Shown here in pieces: positions 6,632 to 43,929 of a stretch of DNA of 64,000 nt. Numbering within the stretch: the first letter of the stretch is position 1; each line of letters opens with the position of its first letter. Location: the NCBI RefSeq assembly GCF_053078305.1, contig NZ_CP166879.1. The stretch is one strand, 5' to 3'. The notes under the pieces are model-generated. The model did no database searches and was not told the DNA's origin. It worked only from the letters and a program-made list of their open reading frames with translations. The translations under genes and the position numbers were made by a program.

Positions 6632-6930
6632 AATGGCAGCCTCTTGGTTGAGTATTAATAACTCACCACCAAGGTTTTCCACGACCATAAGGGTGGTGAG
6701 ACGTACAGGGGTGGAAATACCGGTCAACCAAGAATCCGGCCAGCCTTGCGGCTGCCCTGCACGCCCCACCATAATCTGAATGTGGCTGTGCATTACGCAT
6801 AAAAAAACCGCCTGAGCGCGGTTATGCGCTTGATTGAATTCCGGGTTTCCACGCCCGGCACCCGCTTTATGAGGTGCAGATGAACTATAATTCCACCCGT
6901 TCTGGTTTTCAATAGCTACATTCAACATTT
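6632..6930 (-). promoter_or_regulatory. Structured leader with intrinsic-terminator hairpin upstream of rha; homologous to satellite leader at 35684-36045
   Basis: Hairpin ACCGCgctcagGCGGT plus U7 near 6795-6825; conserved blocks shared with second copy. Confidence 0.45.
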
Positions 6931-7119
6931 TCTCTTACCCTTCATCACCGAAGTGAACTTTGTTGATGCAGTGCCTGGTGCCTCCAGGTGACGTTAACCA
7001 GTTAACAATTAACGCCGGAATACAGAAGTATGCCCGTTACGCCCCGTAAAAGACCACTTTACGGTTTTAACTGTTCCGCGTGCGCTTAGCCGCATTCACC
7101 GCATCACAAAATTCACTTT

Positions 7120-7178
7120 AAAAAGGGTGGCAGAGCAGTCACGGAGTAGAACTGATGCCACCAAAGACTACACATGGG
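7120..7178 (-). ncRNA. dicF: DicF-like small RNA
   Basis: Minus strand reads ...ggtggcatcagttctactccgtgactgctctgccaccctttttaaagtgaattttgtgatg, matching recalled DicF core and downstream flank. Confidence 0.6.
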
Positions 7179-14094: not shown

Positions 14095-14385
14095 CCTGGC
14101 CTGAAGCATTAACAACGGTAGGAATTGCGATGGCGGTGGCGCTGGTGGTGTATTCGATTTGCCGCTGGGGATAAAAACGGTTTGCGGGAAAAGGAGAGTT
14201 AAGTAGAATTGCAGCGGGTGCTTGAGGCTATCTGTCTCAGGCATGAACACCAAAAGGCAGATAGAGAAAAGCCCCAGTTAACATTACGCGTCCGGCAAGA
14301 CGCTTAACATTAATCTGAGGCTCAATCTGTGAACGGCAAATCTAGGTTAGCCTCTTACGCGCCGAAAGGCAAGGAGAAGCAGGCT

Positions 14386-14541
14386 ATGAAGCAGCAAAAG
14401 GCGATGTTAGTCGCCCTGATCGTCATCTGTATTACCGTCATTGTGACGGCACTGGTAACGAGGAAAGACCTCTGCGAGGTACGAATCCGAACCGGCCAGA
14501 CGGAGGTCGCTGTCTTCACAGCTTACGAACCTGAGGAGTAA
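14386..14541 (+). CDS. hok: Hok/Gef-family type I toxin
   Basis: 51 aa MKQQKAMLVALIVICITVIVTALVTRKDLCEVRIRTGQTEVAVFTAYEPEE; upstream in-frame extension resembles mok. Confidence 0.7.
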   Translation: MKQQKAMLVALIVICITVIVTALVTRKDLCEVRIRTGQTEVAVFTAYEPEE

Positions 14542-28227: not shown

Positions 28228-28454
28228 GCGACCTTATTATCCATGCGCGGTATTGTCGCCGTATTCCTGCATTAACAGAGACCGCAGCCCGACAGGGAGA
28301 CTCCTCTGCGCGAGTGTGCGGGGATAATCAAAAACGATACACACCGGGGTTTACCGCGTTAACGGAGCGCGGCGTTGTCCCCTCATGGTCGCTGGTCCGG
28401 TGCGATGGTGGAAGAAACTGGATTTTGTTGCAACTGATAATCATTATCATTTTC

Positions 28455-28530
28455 TCGGGTCCTTTCCGGCATATGGACCCGTTACGGGGCGGCGACCTCG
28501 CGGATTTTCACTATTTATGAAAATTTTCCG
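28455..28530 (+). other. Lambdoid cos site (cosN GGGCGGCGACCT at 28487-28498 plus flanks)
   Basis: ACGGGGCGGCGACCTCGCGG..TTTATGAAAATTTTCC matches lambda cos; CCGGACATG repeats downstream. Confidence 0.65.
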
Positions 28531-28681
28531 GGATCCATGTCCGGTTTCTCTGCAAGTTAACCATATGAAAAATATAAAAACATGCTTTCCATGAACCGGA
28601 CATGCGCAAAAAATAGACACTAAAACCGGACATGACCGGTTTTGTTGTGATTGTGAGGTGAGAGTTTTTGCGAGGTGAGGA

Positions 28682-29191
28682 GTGGCTACGCAGACTGAAG
28701 TTGCCAGGCATTTAAGTCTGACCGATCGCCAGCTTCGCAGATTGCAGAAATTGCCGGGTGCCCCGATATCGAATAAGCGAGGGCAACTGGATCTGGATGC
28801 CTGGCGCGATTTTTACATATCGTATCTGAGAAGAAGTAAAAACGATGTGCCTGATGGCGATAGCGAAGACGACTATGAGGAGAAATTGCTTATTGCCAGA
28901 TGGGAACTGACAGCAGAACAGGCTGTTACACAGCAGTTAAAAAATGAGGTGTCAAAAGGAAAACTTATTGACACCGGGTTCTGTATTTTTGCCCTCAGCA
29001 AGCTGGCAATGGCGTTATCCAGTACGCTTGATTCCATCCCTTTATCCATGCAGCGACAGTTTCCTGATTTAACACCGCGCCATCTTGACCATCTGAAAAC
29101 CCTTATTGCGAAGGGGGCAAATCAGTGTGCGCGGGCGGGGGATAAATTACCGGATTTACTCGATGAATATATCAGAGCAACAACTGAATAA
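28682..29191 (+). CDS. Terminase small subunit (Nu1-like)
   Basis: ...FCIFALSKLAMALSSTLDSIPLSMQRQFPDL... resembles lambda Nu1. Confidence 0.8.
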   Translation: MATQTEVARHLSLTDRQLRRLQKLPGAPISNKRGQLDLDAWRDFYISYLRRSKNDVPDGDSEDDYEEKLLIARWELTAEQAVTQQLKNEVSKGKLIDTGFCIFALSKLAMALSSTLDSIPLSMQRQFPDLTPRHLDHLKTLIAKGANQCARAGDKLPDLLDEYIRATTE

Positions 29192-31091
29192 TATGATGAG
29201 CGCTGTCACAACAGCATTACAGCCCCTGATAAGGGCATTGCCGGTGACGCCAGTTGAATGGGCTGATCAAAATTATTATCTGCCTAAAGAATCTTCATAT
29301 GGTGAGGGAGAATGGAAAACGCTGCCGTTCCAGATCGCCATCATGAACAGCATGGGGAATGATCAGATCCGGACTGTTAATCTGATTAAATCTGCCCGTG
29401 TTGGCTATACAAAGATGTTGCTGGGAGTCGCCGGGTATTTTATTGAGCATAAATCCCGAAACAGTCTGCTTTTTCAGCCCACGGATTCTGCCGCTGAAGA
29501 TTTTATGAAGTCTCACGTGGAGGCGACGATTCGCGATGTTCCCTGCCTGAAAAAACTTTCTCCCTGGCTGGGACGTAAACATCGTGATAATACCATCACG
29601 CTGAAACGCTTTTCATCGGGTGTGGGTTTCTGGTGCCTGGGTGGTGCGGCAGCAAAAAACTACCGTGAAAAATCCGTGGATGTGGTCTGCTATGACGAGC
29701 TTTCCTCGTTCGAGCCGGATGTTGAAAAAGAGGGCTCGCCAACCCTGCTGGGGGATAAGCGTATTGAGGGCTCGGTATGGCCAAAATCCATTCGCGGCTC
29801 GACGCCAAAAATAAAAGGTTCCTGCCAGATCGAAAAAGCGGCCAACGAGTCGGCGCATTTTATGCGTTTTTATGTGCCCTGCCCACACTGCGGGGAGGAG
29901 CAGTATCTGAAATTTGGCGATGAGTCCACGCCTTTTGGCCTTAAATGGGAGAAGGACAGCCCCGAAAGCGTTTTCTACCTCTGTGAACATCATGGCTGCG
30001 TGATCCATCAGTCTGAGCTTGACCAGAGCAACGGGCGGTGGATCTGTGAAAACACGGGGATGTGGACCCGTGATGGTCTGACGTTTTTCAGCGCTGCGGG
30101 TAATGAAATTCCACCGCCGCGCTCCATCACGTTCCACATCTGGACGGCGTACAGTCCGTTCACCACCTGGGTACAGATAGTCTATGACTGGCTGGATGCA
30201 CTGAAAGATCCCAACGGCGTGAAAACCTTTGTGAACACCACGCTGGGCGAGACCTGGGAAGAGGCCGTGGGCGAAAAACTCGATCACCAGGTGCTGATGG
30301 ATAAGGTTGTGCGTTACACAGCGGCGGTGCCTGCCCGGGTGGTTTATCTGACGGCGGGTATTGACTCGCAGCGAAACCGTTTTGAGATGTATGTCTGGGG
30401 ATGGGCTCCGGGAGAGGAAGCCTTTCTGGTGGATAAAATCATCATTATGGGGCGTCCCGATGAGGAAGAGACGCTGTTACGTGTGGATGCGGCGATCAAC
30501 AAAAAATACCGCCATGCAGACGGAACCGAAATGACCATTTCCCGTGTCTGCTGGGACACAGGGGGGATCGATGGCGAAATTGTCTATCAGAGGTCAAAAA
30601 AACACGGTGTTTTCCGGGTGCTGCCGGTAAAAGGTGCATCTGTTTATGGCAAGCCGGTGATCACCATGCCAAAAACCCGCAATCAGCGGGGCGTGTATCT
30701 GTGCGAAGTGGGGACGGACACCGCAAAAGAAATTCTCTATGCCCGTATGAAAGCCGATCCCACGCCTGCGGATGAAGCCACGTCGTATGCCATCCGTTTT
30801 CCTGATGATCCGGAGATTTTTTCGCAGACAGAGGCGCAGCAACTGGTGGCGGAAGAGCTTGTGGAGAAGTGGGAAAAAGGAAAGATGCGTCTGCTGTGGG
30901 ATAACAAAAAGCGGCGTAACGAAGCGCTGGACTGCCTGGTGTATGCCTACGCGGCATTACGTGTGTCCGTGCAACGCTGGCAGCTTGATCTGGCTGTACT
31001 GGCAAAATCCCGGGAAGAAGAGACGACCCGGCCAACCCTTAAAGAACTGGCAGCGAAGCTGTCCGGAGGAGTGAATGGTTACAGTCGCTGA
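29163..31091 (+). CDS. Terminase large subunit (gpA-like)
   Basis: MNISEQQLN...VEWADQNYYLPKES... collinear with lambda gpA. Confidence 0.85.
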   Translation: MNISEQQLNNMMSAVTTALQPLIRALPVTPVEWADQNYYLPKESSYGEGEWKTLPFQIAIMNSMGNDQIRTVNLIKSARVGYTKMLLGVAGYFIEHKSRNSLLFQPTDSAAEDFMKSHVEATIRDVPCLKKLSPWLGRKHRDNTITLKRFSSGVGFWCLGGAAAKNYREKSVDVVCYDELSSFEPDVEKEGSPTLLGDKRIEGSVWPKSIRGSTPKIKGSCQIEKAANESAHFMRFYVPCPHCGEEQYLKFGDESTPFGLKWEKDSPESVFYLCEHHGCVIHQSELDQSNGRWICENTGMWTRDGLTFFSAAGNEIPPPRSITFHIWTAYSPFTTWVQIVYDWLDALKDPNGVKTFVNTTLGETWEEAVGEKLDHQVLMDKVVRYTAAVPARVVYLTAGIDSQRNRFEMYVWGWAPGEEAFLVDKIIIMGRPDEEETLLRVDAAINKKYRHADGTEMTISRVCWDTGGIDGEIVYQRSKKHGVFRVLPVKGASVYGKPVITMPKTRNQRGVYLCEVGTDTAKEILYARMKADPTPADEATSYAIRFPDDPEIFSQTEAQQLVAEELVEKWEKGKMRLLWDNKKRRNEALDCLVYAYAALRVSVQRWQLDLAVLAKSREEETTRPTLKELAAKLSGGVNGYSR

Positions 31092-31281
31092 ACTGCAGGC
31101 GCTGCGTCAGGCGCGCCTTGATTTATTAACCGGTAAACGGGTGGTGTCTGTCCAGAAAGATGGTCGCAGAATTGAATATACGGCGGCCTCTCTGGATGAG
31201 CTTAACCGTGCGATCAATGATGCTGAGTTGGTACTGGGGACAACCCGCCGTCGCCGTCGTCCGCTGGGAGTGAGGTTATGA
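31075..31281 (+). CDS. Head-tail joining protein (gpW-like)
   Basis: 68 aa; ...LTGKRVVSVQKDGRRIEYTAASL... Confidence 0.8.
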   Translation: MVTVAELQALRQARLDLLTGKRVVSVQKDGRRIEYTAASLDELNRAINDAELVLGTTRRRRRPLGVRL

Positions 31282-32150
31282 AACGAACGCCTGTCCTGAT
31301 TGATGTGAACGGCGTTCCGCTTCGGGAGAGCCTAAGCTACAACGGGGGCGGCGCAGGATTTGGCGGGCAAATGGCAGAGTGGTTGCCACCCTCGCAGAGT
31401 GCCGATGCGGCCCTGCTGCCCGCGTTGCGTCTGGGGAATGCCCGTGCAGATGATCTGGTGCGCAATAACGGAATAGCGGCCAATGCGGTGGCCCTGCATA
31501 AGGATCACATTGTCGGGCATATGTTTCTGATTAGCTACCGTCCGAACTGGCGCTGGCTGGGGATGCGGGAGACCGCGGCAAAAAGTTTTGTCGATGAGGT
31601 GGAGGCGGCCTGGTCAGAATACGCAGAAGGGATGTTTGGTGAGATCGACGTGGAAGGGAAACGCACGTTTACGGAATTTATCCGTGAAGGTGTGGGCGTT
31701 CATGCGTTTAACGGCGAAATCTTTGTGCAGCCGGTCTGGGATACGGAGAGCACGCAACTGTTTCGTACGCGTTTTAAAGCCGTGAGTCCGAAACGGGTGG
31801 ACACGCCAGGACACGGTATGGGGAACCGTTTTCTGCGGGCCGGTGTGGAGGTCGATCGATATGGTCGTGCCGTTGCGTACCATATCTGTGAGGATGATTT
31901 TCCTCACTCCGGGAGTGGACGATGGGAACGGATCCCGCGTGAACTTCTCACCGGGCGTCCGGCCATGCTGCATATTTTCGAGCCGGTGGAGGACGGGCAG
32001 ACCCGTGGGGCCAATCAGTTTTACAGCGTCATGGAACGGCTGAAGATGCTCGATTCCCTGCAGGCAACACAGCTTCAGTCGGCCATTGTTAAAGCCATTT
32101 ATGTCTATCATCTCCCCGTAGTTGTCCGCATCGTTCGCCAACTCCACTGA
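31278..32150 (+). pseudogene. Portal protein (gpB-like), N-terminal ~275 codons, interrupted near 32102
   Basis: Portal homology stops at ...QSAIVKAIY; the last 16 codons are read-through into inserted DNA. Confidence 0.75.
32091..32103 (+). repeat. Left att core AAAGCCATTTATG
   Basis: Direct repeat of 43930-43942 (one mismatch). Confidence 0.5.
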
Positions 32151-32225: not shown

Positions 32226-32285
32226 TTGTGTATTGCAATGTGTATTGCAAATTGGCGATCGGGATGGGTGTGTATTGCAAATCTC
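32226..32285 (+). repeat. Three TGTGTATTGCAA repeats (putative integrase arm sites)
   Basis: Same motif occurs twice at 43838-43862 near the other junction. Confidence 0.4.
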
Positions 32286-32298
32286 TTGAGGGCTGTTA

Positions 32299-33540
32299 AT
32301 GGCTATTGAAAACAAACTCAGTGACAAACTGTTAAAGAGTCTTGTCGGAAAACGGCAGGACAAACAAAAAACAATAGCGGATGGGCGCGGGTTGTCTGTG
32401 CGTGTAAGCATGGTTGGGGGGATCAGCTTTGTTTTTTACTATCGTCTTGGTGGCAGGGAATCCCCTCCGGTATGGCTTACACTTGGGCGCTATCCTGATA
32501 TGTCTCTTGCAACAGCCAGGCGCATGCGTGATCAGTGCCGTGAGTGGCTGGCTGAAAATCTGGACCCCCGCAGGCAAATAAAACTTGCCGCCGAAAAAAC
32601 CATGCAACCAGTGACCGTAAGGGATGCGCTGTTTTACTGGTACGACAATCACGCCACAACAGCCAGAAAAGAGCATGAATATTTAATAAAACGATTTGAA
32701 AAGCATATCTTCCCCTATATCGGTGATATGGCTATAGAACAGTGCAAATTACACACATGGCTTGCCGTCTTTGACAGGATCAAAAAAAATGCGCCTGTTA
32801 TGTCTGGTGCAATTTTTCTTGATATCAAACAGGCGTTGCGTTTTTGTCGCGTCAGGCAATACATCGCGTGCGATCCCTTTGGCGATATTAACGTAAGTTA
32901 TGTCGGGCGCTCATCCGGTATAAGGGATCGCGTTCTTAATATCAATGAAACAGCGGATGTATGGTCTTATGCTTACGGTAATAATTTGCTGACACTGTCA
33001 TCAATACATAACAGAAGAATAATGGTTATCTGCCTGGTGTTTGGTTGCCGTCAGCAGGAGGCGAGGTTATCCACATGGGACGAATGGGATTTAAAAAACT
33101 GGGTATGGACAGTCCCAAAAGAGCACAGCAAAAACAAGGAGGCCATAGTAAGGCCTGTTCCTGACGGCATAAAACAATGGCTCGTTAATCTTTACGCAGA
33201 AACAAAAAATCGCGGTTATGTTGTCGGTTGTGCTTTGCAAAGGGCGACAATAACAGGGGCTGCAAACAGAATATGCAGGCGTCTTGGTCATGATATTAAT
33301 GGCTTGTGGTGCATACATGATTTCAGGCGCACATTTTCCACTGCGCTTAATGATATGGGGGCGGATCCTTATATTGTCGAACTTCTTTTAGGTCATAAAG
33401 TGAAAGGGGTTGCCGGTGTTTACAATAAAAGCAGGCATATAAAGAAAAAACTTGAGGTGCTTAATATGTGGGTTAATTACCTTAATACGATAGCAGGATT
33501 TAACAACAACGTTATCGAGCTTAATAAAGAGGTGGTGTGA
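32299..33540 (+). CDS. int: P4-type tyrosine integrase
   Basis: 413 aa; N-terminal LSDKLLKSL...GRGLSVRV arm-binding domain; C-terminal ...LLGHK...VYNKS. Confidence 0.85.
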   Translation: MAIENKLSDKLLKSLVGKRQDKQKTIADGRGLSVRVSMVGGISFVFYYRLGGRESPPVWLTLGRYPDMSLATARRMRDQCREWLAENLDPRRQIKLAAEKTMQPVTVRDALFYWYDNHATTARKEHEYLIKRFEKHIFPYIGDMAIEQCKLHTWLAVFDRIKKNAPVMSGAIFLDIKQALRFCRVRQYIACDPFGDINVSYVGRSSGIRDRVLNINETADVWSYAYGNNLLTLSSIHNRRIMVICLVFGCRQQEARLSTWDEWDLKNWVWTVPKEHSKNKEAIVRPVPDGIKQWLVNLYAETKNRGYVVGCALQRATITGAANRICRRLGHDINGLWCIHDFRRTFSTALNDMGADPYIVELLLGHKVKGVAGVYNKSRHIKKKLEVLNMWVNYLNTIAGFNNNVIELNKEVV

Positions 33541-33799: not shown

Positions 33800-33853
33800 C
33801 CAGTAAATAACGCCCCTCATCAAGAGGGGTTTTTGTCTATAGGGTAAAACGCG

Positions 33854-34432
33854 ATGAATAAAAATATTGCCGTGACGGGCAAGGGGTACGCTCGTCCAGT
33901 GAAAAAATTCTGTGATATTCGTGATCTTGTCGTTCTGCGCTTTGATGGTGTGAGCGTTCGCGTGGTGTATGTGAACGGCGATCCGTGGTTTGTTGCCGTT
34001 GACGTGTGCGCTGCGCTGGAAATTGTTGATCACAAGGTTGCGTTACGCCGTCTCGATGATGATGAAAAGGGGGAGTGTTTAATACCCACCCCAGGTGGAA
34101 ATCAAACAATGCGAACGGTATGCGAGTCAGGGTTCTACAAACTAATCGCCAGAAGTCGGAAAGCTGTTACTCCTGGCACGTTCGCCCGTCGTTTCAGTAA
34201 CTGGGTATTCAGAAATGTGATACCAGGTATCAGAAAAACGGGGGCTTATGGTATCCCGTGGGGGGCATTACAGGATTTTTCCCGCCGTAAAGAGCAATAT
34301 CAAATAAGTGCCAGCGAGAAGGGGAGGGAGCTACAGGCATGTAAGCGCAAAAAACGTGAACTGGAGGAAGAAGAAAAAAGGCTGATACGTGAATATCAGC
34401 CTGAGTTTTACTTTGGTGAGCGTATTCAGTAA
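33854..34432 (+). CDS. Bro-N-domain protein (antirepressor-like)
   Basis: ...VVYVNGDPWFVAVDVCAALEI... Bro-N signature. Confidence 0.65.
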   Translation: MNKNIAVTGKGYARPVKKFCDIRDLVVLRFDGVSVRVVYVNGDPWFVAVDVCAALEIVDHKVALRRLDDDEKGECLIPTPGGNQTMRTVCESGFYKLIARSRKAVTPGTFARRFSNWVFRNVIPGIRKTGAYGIPWGALQDFSRRKEQYQISASEKGRELQACKRKKRELEEEEKRLIREYQPEFYFGERIQ

Positions 34433-34895
34433 CCACACGCGGTGCTGATTATACGGTACATCGTGTTAACCGAGAAGCTACCCACCAGCAAGGCAAAATC
34501 TTCTGCTAAAAAATGACATATGGCCAGTCGTCCGGAAAGCATGAAATTTTACAAAAATGGAAAATGAAGATTTTTATTGTGCTGGTGGGTAAAAACAAAA
34601 AGCGCCCCGTTGCCGGAGCGCCCTTGTGAACAATTAACCTGCTGCGAAAAAATTGGATCAGTGCAGGGAAATTATATCAACTGTGTGAAGAAGCGCCACA
34701 ATTGCCAGTTTAGCTTTGCGGCGAACGCGTCAATAAAGAATATTCTTTCTTTAAATTCTGTTTGTGTATTTTTTCGTAGTTTTTCGTAGTTTTTCGTAAG
34801 GAGAAAGAGCGGCGCGTATGCACCGCTAAGGAGTTTATTTTCATGACTTATGCAGCTTTCAATCTTAGCACCGCCGTAGCTGGTGGACAAGGCTA

Positions 34896-35123
34896 TCAGC
34901 CAGGCGGTCGGTTTTTAGTGGCTTTTAACCGCCGTGGGTATTTCTCGACAAAATCTTCAAGGGCAAATTTTTCTGGTGGCACTAAGCGCGGCGCTGGTGG
35001 TGGTATTTTTGTTCTGGTTAGTTCTTCCTCAAGTCTGGCGCAGGCTTCTAACTGCCTTTGCCGGATGATTTCATCATCTTGCGTTTGCGTGTCTTGTATT
35101 GGTGATAGTGTGTTGTTGGTCAT
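34896..35123 (-). CDS. Hypothetical protein
   Basis: 75 aa ORF downstream of putative repressor; weak. Confidence 0.3.
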   Translation of the reverse strand: MTNNTLSPIQDTQTQDDEIIRQRQLEACARLEEELTRTKIPPPAPRLVPPEKFALEDFVEKYPRRLKATKNRPPG

Positions 35124-35180
35124 GATACTGCCCTGTAAAGCAATGCGCCGGAGTACCTCACGCCACGGCGCTGATAGTGA

Positions 35181-35501
35181 TTATTCTGATTCTTGGGTCT
35201 TGCGACGCTGGAGTTCTTCGCGTGCAACGGTGACAAGTTGCCCGATTTCTTCCGCTGCTTTGATGCCGATTTGTTCGACCTTAGCCAGAGCATCCAGTGA
35301 AGACACAAGGGGATTTTCTCCGCTGCCTTCTGCCTGGCGGCGGGCGATTTCACCGCGCATGGCGGTTACTATGAATCCGGCGTTGCTTTCACCGTCCAGT
35401 TTTACGGATTCCATGCCTTCAATAACATCATGCGGGATCCGAGCTGTCAGTGATTGTGATTTTGCGTTTTTTGAACCTGTAGCCATCTGTAATCCTCTCA
35501 A
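35181..35501 (-). CDS. Putative satellite regulator/repressor
   Basis: 106 aa, divergent from operator-like region. Confidence 0.4.
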   Translation of the reverse strand: MRGLQMATGSKNAKSQSLTARIPHDVIEGMESVKLDGESNAGFIVTAMRGEIARRQAEGSGENPLVSSLDALAKVEQIGIKAAEEIGQLVTVAREELQRRKTQESE

Positions 35502-35683
35502 TGAAAGTGTAAGACAATATACACATAAAAAGTCTTACATAAAAGCATTGACATGTAAGCCACCTATAAATAAAGTTACTTACACCTTGTTAATGCAAGG
35601 TGCAGAAACGACGAAACCCGGCAGTGCGCTAACACTAACCGGGCTTCTAACCACCAACGATAGAAAGCGTATCGAGGTAGCTA
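35502..35683. promoter_or_regulatory. Divergent control region with palindromic TGTAAGAC/GTCTTACA operators
   Basis: tgtaagacaatatacacataaaaagtcttaca and ttgacatgtaagcc...agttacttacac. Confidence 0.4.
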
Positions 35684-36045
35684 TGAGAAATCATACCACA
35701 CACCCGCAAGGGCGGGACTCGCACAACCTGAATAAATACATCTGGCGTTTTCTGGCCCGAAAAAACCAGTTGATCGCCAGTGTCGAAAATAGCTATGATT
35801 CCCGCGCACCTCATAAAACGGGTGCCGGGATTGGCGTCCTGGGCAAAACTGAAGCGCATAACACGCGCCCCGCGTGTTTTTTTGTGCCGCATAGTCACAC
35901 CTTATCAATGGTGGGCTGTACGGGGGCGGAGCAATCCGCGCCGGTTTCTTCAGTGTCCGGTTACGCCAACCCTGTACAGTCCGCCACCAGCGAAATTGGC
36001 GTTTCCGGTGGCGGTTATCTTAACCACACTGAGGAGGCTGCCAAC
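35684..36045 (+). promoter_or_regulatory. Structured leader with terminator hairpin; homologue of rha leader at 6632-6930
   Basis: Conserved blocks plus hairpin ACACGCGccccGCGTGT followed by U7. Confidence 0.45.
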
Positions 36046-36237
36046 ATGGCTACTATCCCTACCCTTGTACATTCTCAAACCGCCTTTCTCTGGCGCTTTA
36101 TCATCTTTGGCGCGTCAGACCATCAAATCATCCACGTCACCGCCTGGACGGAACGCGAAGCGCGTAGCCGTTGCCCGTCCGGTTGTGTTGCTGTATTCGC
36201 CGCCCGTATTCGTCAGGAGGTGTGCCATGTGCAATAA
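36046..36237 (+). CDS. Small ORF sharing its first seven codons (MATIPTL) with rha
   Basis: GAGGAGG RBS; 63 aa; N-terminal nucleotides identical to rha start. Confidence 0.3.
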   Translation: MATIPTLVHSQTAFLWRFIIFGASDHQIIHVTAWTEREARSRCPSGCVAVFAARIRQEVCHVQ

Positions 36238-43329: not shown

Positions 43330-43929
43330 CTTGCTGATATTCCCGATAACGCAAAATTGCGCTCTGTCCTAACCCGTTGATATTTTCGGGAACAGCCAAC
43401 GGCTGAGGCCGGAACAACGATTATCTTTCAGATAGTCAGAGCTACGAAATTTTCGTAGTTTAATTACTCGCCAGTTTATCGTTAACTCGTTGATATTTTC
43501 GGTAACCTCAATTTGAGGAGATCGGAAACATAACCCTTCACATTCTGAATGGTTATAATGACCACTCAGACCATCAAGGCAACCATAACGAACATCGTTA
43601 CGGTTGGAGCTTTTACCCCACTGGGGGGAAGGTGCACATCTGGATCATCATTACCGTGATCAAGGGTATGTAAAACCCACCAGCCTGATTAACTGTTAAC
43701 CGGAAAAAAGCCAGGTAGCCAATCTCGATATGGGGATCCCCATATCGACATTAACGCCCCCTAGAACTGCGCATATCTGCATATAAAAACATCCACCAGC
43801 TTTATGACGGATGCCGCTCATCTGATAAATAATCGTGTATTGCAATGTGTATTGCGACTCCTTTAAACGATAGGTTTGAGCATTCGTAATGTACTGTTTT
43901 TAAATTTTATTTTTTCCTGTCTTTTCATA

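Follow-up and report, generated by a model that had tools for sequence, protein, structure and literature searches.

A candidate ribbon-helix-helix repressor and its proposed periodic operator array in the divergent control region of a helper-embedded phage satellite

What keeps a phage satellite silent until its helper acts, and which of its genes holds the switch? The question is raised by positions 35502-35683 of a 64,000-nucleotide stretch of contig NZ_CP166879.1 (assembly GCF_053078305.1; hereafter the window), where an earlier note had described nested palindromes between a putative repressor gene on the minus strand and a leader and replication operon on the plus strand, the layout of a repressor-controlled genetic switch. 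The region belongs to an 11.6-kb satellite that is bounded by 21-bp direct (att) repeats (32228-32248 and 43835-43855) and splits the portal gene of a lambdoid prophage, the N-terminal part of which ends at 32150 and the C-terminal part of which resumes at 43876. The split portal gene and the att repeats, together with a confirmed gene order, identify a helper-embedded phage-inducible chromosomal island (PICI), a configuration described together with C4/isrK immunity RNAs and with no protein repressor (PMC10111431). Gram-negative PICIs spread virulence and defence genes, and the repressor of their model, EcCICFT073, was called "unclear" in 2018; in the literature searched, no protein repressor of Gram-negative PICIs is characterised and the EcCICFT073 gene considered below is not mentioned. 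Our analysis identifies 35487-35590 as the divergent control region of the island, with promoters firing outwards from about 35546, and sequence comparison makes it quite likely that the repeats within it are operators through which an adjacent ribbon-helix-helix (RHH) protein of the YlcI/YnfO family controls the rightward promoter.

The palindromes themselves are real. A repeat finder recovers both pairs singled out previously, TGTAAGAC (35508-35515) with GTCTTACA (35532-35539) across a 16-nt gap and TGTAAG (35554-35559) with CTTACA (35579-35584) across a 19-nt gap, each 100% complementary. Since there is also an inner pair (CTTACAT, 35534-35540, with ATGTAAG, 35553-35559) and an outer 10-nt pair (AAAGTGTAAG, 35504-35513, with CTTACACCTT, 35579-35588), the set is truly nested, with its centre near 35546. 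The long-spaced palindromes are, however, probably not the functional unit, which we take to be an 11-bp pseudo-palindrome of the GTG-N5-CAC type with the core TGTAAGAC. Four copies of this unit follow one another in alternating orientation, their centres (35512, 35535, 35558 and 35580) being spaced by 23, 23 and 22 bp, about two helical turns, in an array that is mirror-symmetric about ~35546. These candidate operators are O1 (GTGTAAGACAA, 35507-35517, forward), O2 (AAGTCTTACAT, 35530-35540, inverted relative to O1), O3 (ATGTAAGCCAC, 35553-35563, forward) and O4 (GTTACTTACAC, 35575-35585, inverted).

TGTAAG or its complement occurs four times in 77 bp (35508 and 35554 on the plus strand, 35534 and 35579 on the minus strand) against 28 occurrences when the two strands of all 64 kb are counted, which amounts to a roughly 100-fold excess over the ~0.03 copies expected locally. 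The look-elsewhere test tempers this figure: in composition-matched, first-order Markov simulations, some non-simple 6-mer reached at least four copies within 182 nt in 542 of 20,000 runs (2.7%). Evidence from the window is therefore suggestive by itself and would not alone prove function; the decisive evidence comes from comparing loci. Outside the array, operator-like 11-mers turn up in the window about as often as chance predicts (18 versus 10.6 expected), so the regulator looks local. A wider regulon was dropped on these grounds, and the TGTAAG copies at 32403/32476 and within 25882-26688 were judged to be chance occurrences.

The array lies on the core elements of two divergent promoters. 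A consensus scan called one strong promoter, P_R, which reads rightwards with a -35 element TTGACA (35548-35553), a 17-nt spacer and a -10 element TAAAGT (35571-35576), matching the consensus at 10 of 12 positions and predicting transcription from about 35583-35585. The leader homology present in many E. coli elements begins at 35582 (query position 402), coinciding with this predicted start, and the conserved sigma-70 promoter bears out the divergent plus-strand operon that had been proposed. The putative leftward promoter, P_L, with a start predicted near 35509, has a -10 element TATATT (35516-35521, minus strand) at the mirror position with respect to O1 and O2, within an element, CAGTATAC or CAATATAC (TATATT or TATACT), that is kept in about all loci whatever their operator class. 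O3 starts on the last base of the P_R -35 element and fills the spacer, and O4 overlaps the -10 and +1; in mirror image, O1 and O2 lie on the weakly supported P_L, with O1 overlapping its -10/+1. As an operator region, the segment first delimited thus holds only in its left part: 35502-35590 is promoter and operator, and 35600-35685 is instead a 5' untranslated region and, probably, an antisense-RNA gene. The P_R transcript is predicted to begin with a hairpin, CACCTTG-N6-CAAGGTG (35583-35602, plus strand), the arms of which vary with compensation in relatives, for example as CACCAT...ATGGTG in locus L021. In some relatives a fifth operator copy occupies the position of this hairpin, about 116 nt away from the first codon of the adjacent gene.

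That gene, the proposed repressor gene, runs on the minus strand from 35486 to 35181 and encodes 101 amino acids. Its start had been placed at TTG 35501 and is most likely ATG 35486 instead, because all homologues begin there (MATG... or MSVY...) and AGGA precedes it. The product is a predicted RHH DNA-binding protein, which agrees with the repressor role first suggested for it. Residues 9-50 cover positions 1-42 of the 42-position NCBIfam profile NF041551 (YlcI_YnfO_N) with 71.1 bits against a cut-off of 30, phrog_6522 matches at E=5e-59, and PGAP gives the YlcI/YnfO name to all homologues, of which we found 256 across Enterobacterales. A pN/pS of 0.13-0.21 indicates purifying selection. In the literature searched, and within the limits of that literature, we found no characterisation of the family.

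The protein consists of an RHH domain (residues 10-51), an HhH-like insert (about 52-93) and a conserved tail, RRKTQESE. Its sequence can be read as strand-helix-helix, a G-E-S-N motif preceding helix B, and an AlphaFold2 model returns the same topology (extended 11-18, helices 19-28 and 35-55). When two copies are modelled as a linked tandem, strands 10-18 and 81-89 are predicted to form the two-stranded antiparallel sheet of an intertwined dimer (pTM 0.71), the best structural match of which is TraY, an architectural RHH protein of the relaxosome. An RHH dimer is thus supported at the level of models. Curated families are less informative: Pfam gives no match at E<=0.01 for the 101-residue protein, so that no curated RHH family claims it; the weak PF07704 (PSK/Rv0623 antitoxin family) match in 33 of 44 members stays below the gathering score (best E=0.00098); a Foldseek search of the PDB has Arc (1par) as its top match, not significant; and a sequence-profile search of the PDB finds no RHH relative and only HhH similarity for the insert. 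This 42-residue insert (codons 52-93, window 35334-35208) resembles the HhH domain of Hef (E=0.008). The family comes in two forms, one of 101 residues with the insert and one of 59 without it, both ending in a RRKAKEQE-like tail (comparison of L007-L012 and L018-L021).

Whether the array and this protein belong together can be asked of 32 control regions, those of the window and of 31 related loci (12 from complete E. coli genomes, 9 from other genera found by genome scan and 10 from an exact-protein look-up; designated L001 and onwards), which represent at least 12 genera; EcCICFT073 was examined in addition. Every locus has the same plan: the int-alpA side, the divergent RHH gene, about 197 bp, and then the first rightward open reading frame (ORF). 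P_R is kept in all 32, with TTGAC(A/G) at a fixed position and a TAnnnT -10 element at 17-18 nt. Site centres lie about 27, 49, 72, 94 and sometimes 116 nt from the repressor start codon, and these distances are constant across specificity classes. A cognate site at the O1 position (~27 nt) is found in nearly all classes, and the O2 site (~49 nt) in most long-form loci; it is usually absent from short-form loci, and L011 and L012 have a displaced site.

The sequence of the sites, by contrast with their positions, changes from locus to locus. The frame GTG...CA(C) is largely constant; the inner 5 bp vary between loci, with all copies in a locus changing together, and they track the motif KSQ-x1-x2-x3-x4-R of the protein's beta-strand, in which x1 and x3 are predicted to face the DNA. 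Specifically, S[LV]T[AV]R goes with GTGTAAGACAC (window, L001, L002, L007, L013, L019, L021, L022 and L030), L[TF]TVR with GTGTGTTTCA (L003, L006, L014 and L029), MTT[ILV]R with TGTATATCAC (L005, L018, L025 and L031; in L018 as the variants GTGTATGTCAG and GTGAAATACAC), QISIR with GTGTGATTCA (L015 and L026), ALKAR with GTGGGCCACAC (L008, L010 and EcCICFT073), QLNAR with GTGCGATTCAC (L009 and L020), TVAAR with GTGTTYAACAC (L011 and L012), xKN[IV]R with GTGTG(C/T)AT (L004, L016, L017 and L028) and MISTR with GTGTAGTCA (L027). Among 27 non-redundant loci, same-class pairs share on average 17.1 operator-region 7-mers and different-class pairs 4.5 (permutation p<=1e-4), and operator similarity hardly follows the rest of the RHH domain (rho=0.12). 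Natural swaps point the same way. The proteins of the window and L003 are nearly identical after residue 23, differ in their strands and have unrelated operators; conversely, L007, L019 and L021 (Superficieibacter, Xenorhabdus) share the window's beta-strand and its operator GTGTAAGACAC at only ~50-60% identity over RHH residues 18-51 and without the insert. What is exchanged is a cassette of about 200 bp (35421-35619 in the window) comprising codons 1-22 and the operators, in at least nine classes.

These data all but dispose of the idea that the palindromes arose by chance in a promoter region rich in A+T. The 2.7% of the look-elsewhere test, not overwhelming alone, is the figure that would leave room for it; conserved positions and concerted, class-specific changes over the whole set of loci and genera refute it, and we give it a negligible probability. 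The earlier suggestion of a repressor-controlled switch is strengthened instead, as the sites overlap both core promoters and their sequence follows the beta-strand throughout the 32 loci.

A different question is whether the sites might serve another protein (AlpA, Bro-N, the Icd-like product, a helper factor or a host factor), the YlcI/YnfO-family gene being merely adjacent. Experiments have established AlpA as the activator of EcCICFT073 genes (PMC6092414), DNA-binding proteins of the Bro-N, AntA or Rha type are encoded just upstream in many loci, and covariation with the beta-strand could reflect linkage. Each candidate nevertheless meets an obstacle. L004 and L006 encode an identical AlpA (WP_000953272.1) and carry different operators; the N-terminus of the Icd-like product is unchanged across six operator classes; many loci lack Bro or Ant genes or carry ones of an unrelated type, whereas the array is always present; and a conserved host factor cannot account for class-specific cores. 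The RHH gene is the only constant neighbour, and its product varies at the positions predicted to face the DNA. Because it is the beta-strand that the sites follow as they change, and neither AlpA nor the first rightward gene, the comparison supports a repressor-operator switch, and we regard a different binder as rather improbable.

The YlcI/YnfO-family gene might alternatively be the antitoxin of a type II toxin-antitoxin pair, its repeats being autoregulatory and their overlap with P_R incidental. The weak PSK/Rv0623 match would fit such a role, as would a small co-oriented ORF that follows at a conserved distance of 57 nt in several loci and encodes 75 residues in the window (34896-35123, minus strand). 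This ORF is probably co-transcribed with the YlcI/YnfO-family gene, and the leftward transcription unit likely ends at a strong terminator-like hairpin behind it (34598-34625, minus strand; 12-bp stem and T run). ORFs of 57-65 residues are annotated at the same position in L003, L007-L010 and EcCICFT073, the last sharing the motif FALE(D/Q)F with that of the window. The ORF is, however, missing from many loci (L004-L006, L011, L012 and others), has no family match in Pfam, NCBIfam or PHROGs, and stands 57 nt away from its neighbour rather than overlapping it; a toxin role for it was considered and thought unlikely. O3 and O4, moreover, fall exactly on the P_R spacer and -10/+1 in all loci, which indicates selection for control of P_R. 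A toxin-antitoxin pair is accordingly quite improbable in our estimation.

Some RHH proteins, omega among them, act both as repressors and as centromere binders, and the array could in principle be an architectural, centromere-like or activator site, with a main role other than repression of P_R. Periodic sites, three to five in number at a spacing of about two turns, would suit that function, and TraY is the best match of the dimer model. Against it, the neighbourhood encodes neither a partition ATPase nor a relaxase, the satellite is kept in an integrated state, and the sites coincide with the core elements of two divergent promoters, which is classic repression geometry; we rate this alternative as very improbable.

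Repression of P_R by the RHH protein thus remains the favoured reading, and several observations weigh against it. P_L lacks a recognisable -35 element and escaped the consensus scan, so that confidence in it is low. L024 departs from the residue-to-base table: its strand reads QLNARF and its sites are GGTATTCAC rather than GTGCGATTCAC, so residues outside x1 and x3 must also matter. The beta-strand codons lie 35-50 bp from the operators, within one recombination cassette, and their association may therefore be partly physical linkage; the concerted change of three to five dispersed copies argues against linkage pure and simple, but does not alone name the binder. RHH repressors usually bind adjacent sites 7-11 bp apart, and single 11-bp sites spaced by 22-23 bp are unusual for them. 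Finally, AlpA is an activator that helpers induce, and its over-expression alone triggers excision and runaway replication of EcCICFT073 (PMC6092414); RHH repression must hence be overridable by AlpA-dependent events, and it may be a subordinate control and not the master one.

Downstream of the operators, the segment 35600-35685 is kept in nearly all loci, including those with unrelated operators, and probably encodes, on the minus strand, a cis-antisense RNA with two hairpins and a U-rich tail, to judge from its pattern of substitutions. It is complementary to the 5' untranslated region, Shine-Dalgarno sequence and start codon of the first rightward ORF, a geometry that matches symE/symR of E. 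coli K-12. Across 29 loci, RNAalifold gives -21.5 kcal/mol for the minus strand and -9.3 for the plus strand, and the paired columns contain 85 G.U and 1 A.C on the minus strand as against 1 G.U and 14 A.C on the plus strand, an asymmetry that assigns the fold to the minus strand; compensatory changes occur in 9 of 14 pairs. A permissive search with the Rfam SymR model (RF01809) scored 32.8 bits (E=2.4e-4 for 621 nt), below the gathering score of 61, which is why we call the RNA SymR-like and not a SymR member. A covariance model built from the satellite sequences (R1) and run against 162 kb of other sequence retrieved K-12 symR as its only non-self match, in register (27.3 bits, E=5e-4). The RNA may be SymR-like in its working and a distant relative of SymR. 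A putative extended -10 element, TGGTATGAT (35690-35698, minus strand), would start it at the complement of the start codon, near 35683, the motif TGnTAnnAT being kept in loci whose first ORF begins MRNHTTH or MLNHTTH, and the second hairpin with the U-rich tail would terminate it. This predicted RNA gene is not annotated, and EcCICFT073 has it too (L033 8769-8855, minus strand); the literature searched yielded nothing relevant on SymR in satellites.

The ORF facing this RNA starts at 35683 with an icd-like N-terminus (35683-35760, plus strand; Shine-Dalgarno GAGG at 35675-35678), and in relatives a 66-67-residue Icd-like protein begins there. In the window a further RNA module follows, consisting of an isrK-like RNA (35806-35882, plus strand; RF01394, 66 bits, gathering score 50) with an intrinsic terminator at 35860-35878, and a C4/CI-type antisense immunity RNA (35904-35991, plus strand; RF01695, 77.6 bits, gathering score 45). 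In a complementarity scan the C4 loop, UUUCUUCAGUGU, pairs at 12 of 12 positions (G.U counted) with 36026-36037, where the target ACACUGAGGAGG contains the Shine-Dalgarno sequence of a second icd-like gene (ATG 36046, 63 amino acids; target and gene 36026-36237, plus strand; NF033153, 58.9 bits, cut-off 25). The module is optional: the window, L001 and L004 have one, and 18 of 20 other loci scanned lack it. A stop-free frame of 185 codons (35683-36237, within 34843-36237, plus strand) runs from the first icd-like start through both RNAs into the second icd-like gene. Its translation matches Pfam Phage_ASH (PF10554) and phrog_29966; the reading of 35683-36045 as an 'ash family protein' was rejected as a translation of the isrK and C4 RNA genes.

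How might these elements work together? P_R would drive the long rightward operon (leader, icd-like gene or genes, DUF4222, RepA-type helicase, SSB and late genes) and the weaker P_L the 101-residue YlcI/YnfO-family gene. An RHH dimer would insert its two-stranded sheet (residues 10-18, with S12, T14 and R16 facing the DNA) into the major groove of the 11-bp units GTG-TAAGA-CAC. Dimers at O3 and O4, covering the P_R spacer and -10/+1, would shut out RNA polymerase and silence the replication operon, and dimers at O1 and O2, over P_L, would cause negative autoregulation. In the long form, the HhH-like insert may help neighbouring dimers, two helical turns apart, to cooperate, a bridging role suggested by the fact that the O2 site goes with the insert. 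As a second block, a constitutively made SymR-like RNA would cover the ribosome-binding site of the first gene on leaky P_R transcripts; as a third, in this element, the C4-type RNA would pair with the Shine-Dalgarno sequence of the second icd-like gene.

Derepression would most likely be tied to the helper, through expression of alpA and Bro-N or through antiterminated late transcription arriving from the interrupted portal gene. A strong terminator-like hairpin (33812-33830, plus strand) stands directly 3' of alpA, so that Bro-N expression from the alpA promoter would need read-through or antitermination, and simple alpA read-through becomes less likely unless it is antiterminated. Antiterminated late transcription could pass both terminators (33812-33830 and 34625-34598) and cross the switch. 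Alternatively, the Bro-N or AntA-type proteins encoded between alpA and the repressor gene may act as antirepressors. Titration by a helper-encoded YlcI/YnfO homologue finds no candidate, as tblastn detects none in the window.

By analogy, the switch appears closest to immI of phage P22 in logic and geometry and to Stl/Rpr in role, and its cassettes recall the lambdoid imm regions. At P22 immI, known from the Susskind and Sauer literature, the RHH repressors Mnt and Arc act at the divergent promoters P_ant and P_mnt. As is proposed for the satellite, immI has small RHH repressors encoded beside a short intergenic region with two closely apposed divergent promoters, its operators overlap the promoter cores, and autoregulation goes together with repression of the operon opposite; the C-terminal oligomerisation extension of Mnt parallels the extra domain of the long form, which is HhH-like and not a coiled coil. 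No sequence relationship to the satellite protein is detectable. The two systems also differ in that P22 uses one 17-21 bp operator bound by a tetramer and the satellite single 11-bp units, 22-23 bp apart, in 3-5 copies, and in that the P22 operon encodes an antirepressor and the satellite operon icd-like and replication genes.

Stl/Rpr, of staphylococcal pathogenicity islands (SaPIs) and Gram-positive PICIs (PMC6092414), is likewise encoded divergently from the excision and replication operon, on the int side, with intergenic operators, and shares the proposed role of keeping the island silent until the helper acts. The divergent position that such a repressor would take is seen in 32 loci, EcCICFT073 among them. 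Stl is a much larger protein, of helix-turn-helix (HTH) type, and is inactivated by direct binding of helper proteins, whereas the satellite protein is RHH and has 59-101 residues. The inducer pathway published for Gram-negative PICIs runs through AlpA (PMC6092414).

For the RNA layers, the c4-icd-ant immI region of P1/P7 and the CI RNA of P4 offer parallels (RF01695, RF01394; PMC10111431): a C4-family and an isrK-like RNA upstream of an icd-like gene, a C4 loop complementary to the icd-like Shine-Dalgarno sequence, and a toxic cell-division inhibitor placed first in an operon under RNA control. The satellite departs from them in that its C4 module lies outside 35502-35683 and is optional. To our knowledge, neither the operator array nor the predicted cis-antisense RNA, both of them constant, has a counterpart in P1 immI or P4. 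The SymE/SymR pair of E. coli K-12, reportedly described by Kawano, Aravind and Storz in 2007, resembles the predicted antisense RNA in several respects: in each case an RNA of ~77-85 nt overlaps the start codon of the gene on the opposite strand, the second of two hairpins serves as terminator and has a near-identical apical sequence (GUGUUAGCGCAC in the satellite, GUGUUGGCGCAC in SymR), and the models of the two RNAs detect each other reciprocally. Since symE is under LexA at the transcriptional level, both targets would also have a transcriptional protein repressor, LexA there and the proposed RHH protein here. The satellite RNA differs in its target, which is icd-like and not SymE, and in its location in a satellite instead of the hsd/mcr region.

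The namesakes of the protein family, YlcI of DLP12 and YnfO of Qin in K-12 (NF041551), share the N-terminal 42-residue domain, YlcI with the same strand-helix-helix pattern. There, ylcI is divergent from nohD (L035 6252-6834) and faces the cos/terminase region of a lambdoid prophage, and no GTG-N5-CAC array is found upstream of it. Lambdoid imm regions are short mosaic cassettes of a recognition element and operators, exchanged as a unit and falling into discrete specificities. The satellite cassettes are unlike them in that the repressor is RHH and not HTH, only its first 22 codons are swapped, and no cro-like partner was identified. The switch differs from the known systems in its protein family, its periodic array of single units and its stacked RNA controls.

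The satellite as a whole is co-oriented with the interrupted portal gene and reads, in order, integrase, AlpA, Bro-N protein (33854-34432), two small minus-strand genes, icd-like genes, DUF4222, RepA-type helicase, SSB, a PerC/ANR-like protein, E-type major capsid protein, decoration protein and small terminase, the late genes being similar to those of EcCICFT073. Outside it, the window from 19500 to 32150 is 87-93% identical to late regions of Stx-converting and PhiR12-type lambdoid phages, and tRNA genes (Met-CAT, Arg-TCG and Arg-TCT) followed by STnc100 lie at 19758-21049 (plus strand). At 6689-7176 (minus strand), a second C4 RNA (79.8 bits) and an isrK RNA (68.4 bits) adjoin DicF (61.1 bits), presumably in a further prophage region for immunity or the inhibition of cell division. 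At 14216-14391 (plus strand), the sok antitoxin RNA is matched over its full length (109.7 bits), which implies a type I toxin-antitoxin locus of the hok/sok type.

Drawing these threads together, we tentatively propose that the RHH proteins of the YlcI/YnfO family may serve Gram-negative PICIs, cf-PICIs and helper-embedded PICIs as immunity repressors. They would come in at least nine interchangeable cassettes, each of 22 codons and a periodic operator array, and would form the first of three tiers of control that hold down a toxic icd-like gene together with the replication operon, to be opened by helper-dependent AlpA/Bro expression or by antiterminated late transcription; as a whole, this scheme is a possibility held with less than even confidence. 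Should it prove wrong, the region would still be a well-defined promoter array, useful for annotating such islands, next to a probable, conserved SymR-like antisense RNA that standard annotation has missed. The YlcI/YnfO-family gene is small and has probably been overlooked; its homologue in EcCICFT073, C_RS30120, carries late-assigned locus tags in CFT073, which suggests that it was not in the original annotation. The presence of the repressor-operator module in this laboratory model makes the repressor question directly testable with existing strains, now with a concrete candidate gene, its operators and a residue-to-base specificity table. For the YlcI/YnfO 'y-gene' family this would be the first functional hypothesis, and the discrete cassettes suggest that satellites may fall into immunity groups defined by them.

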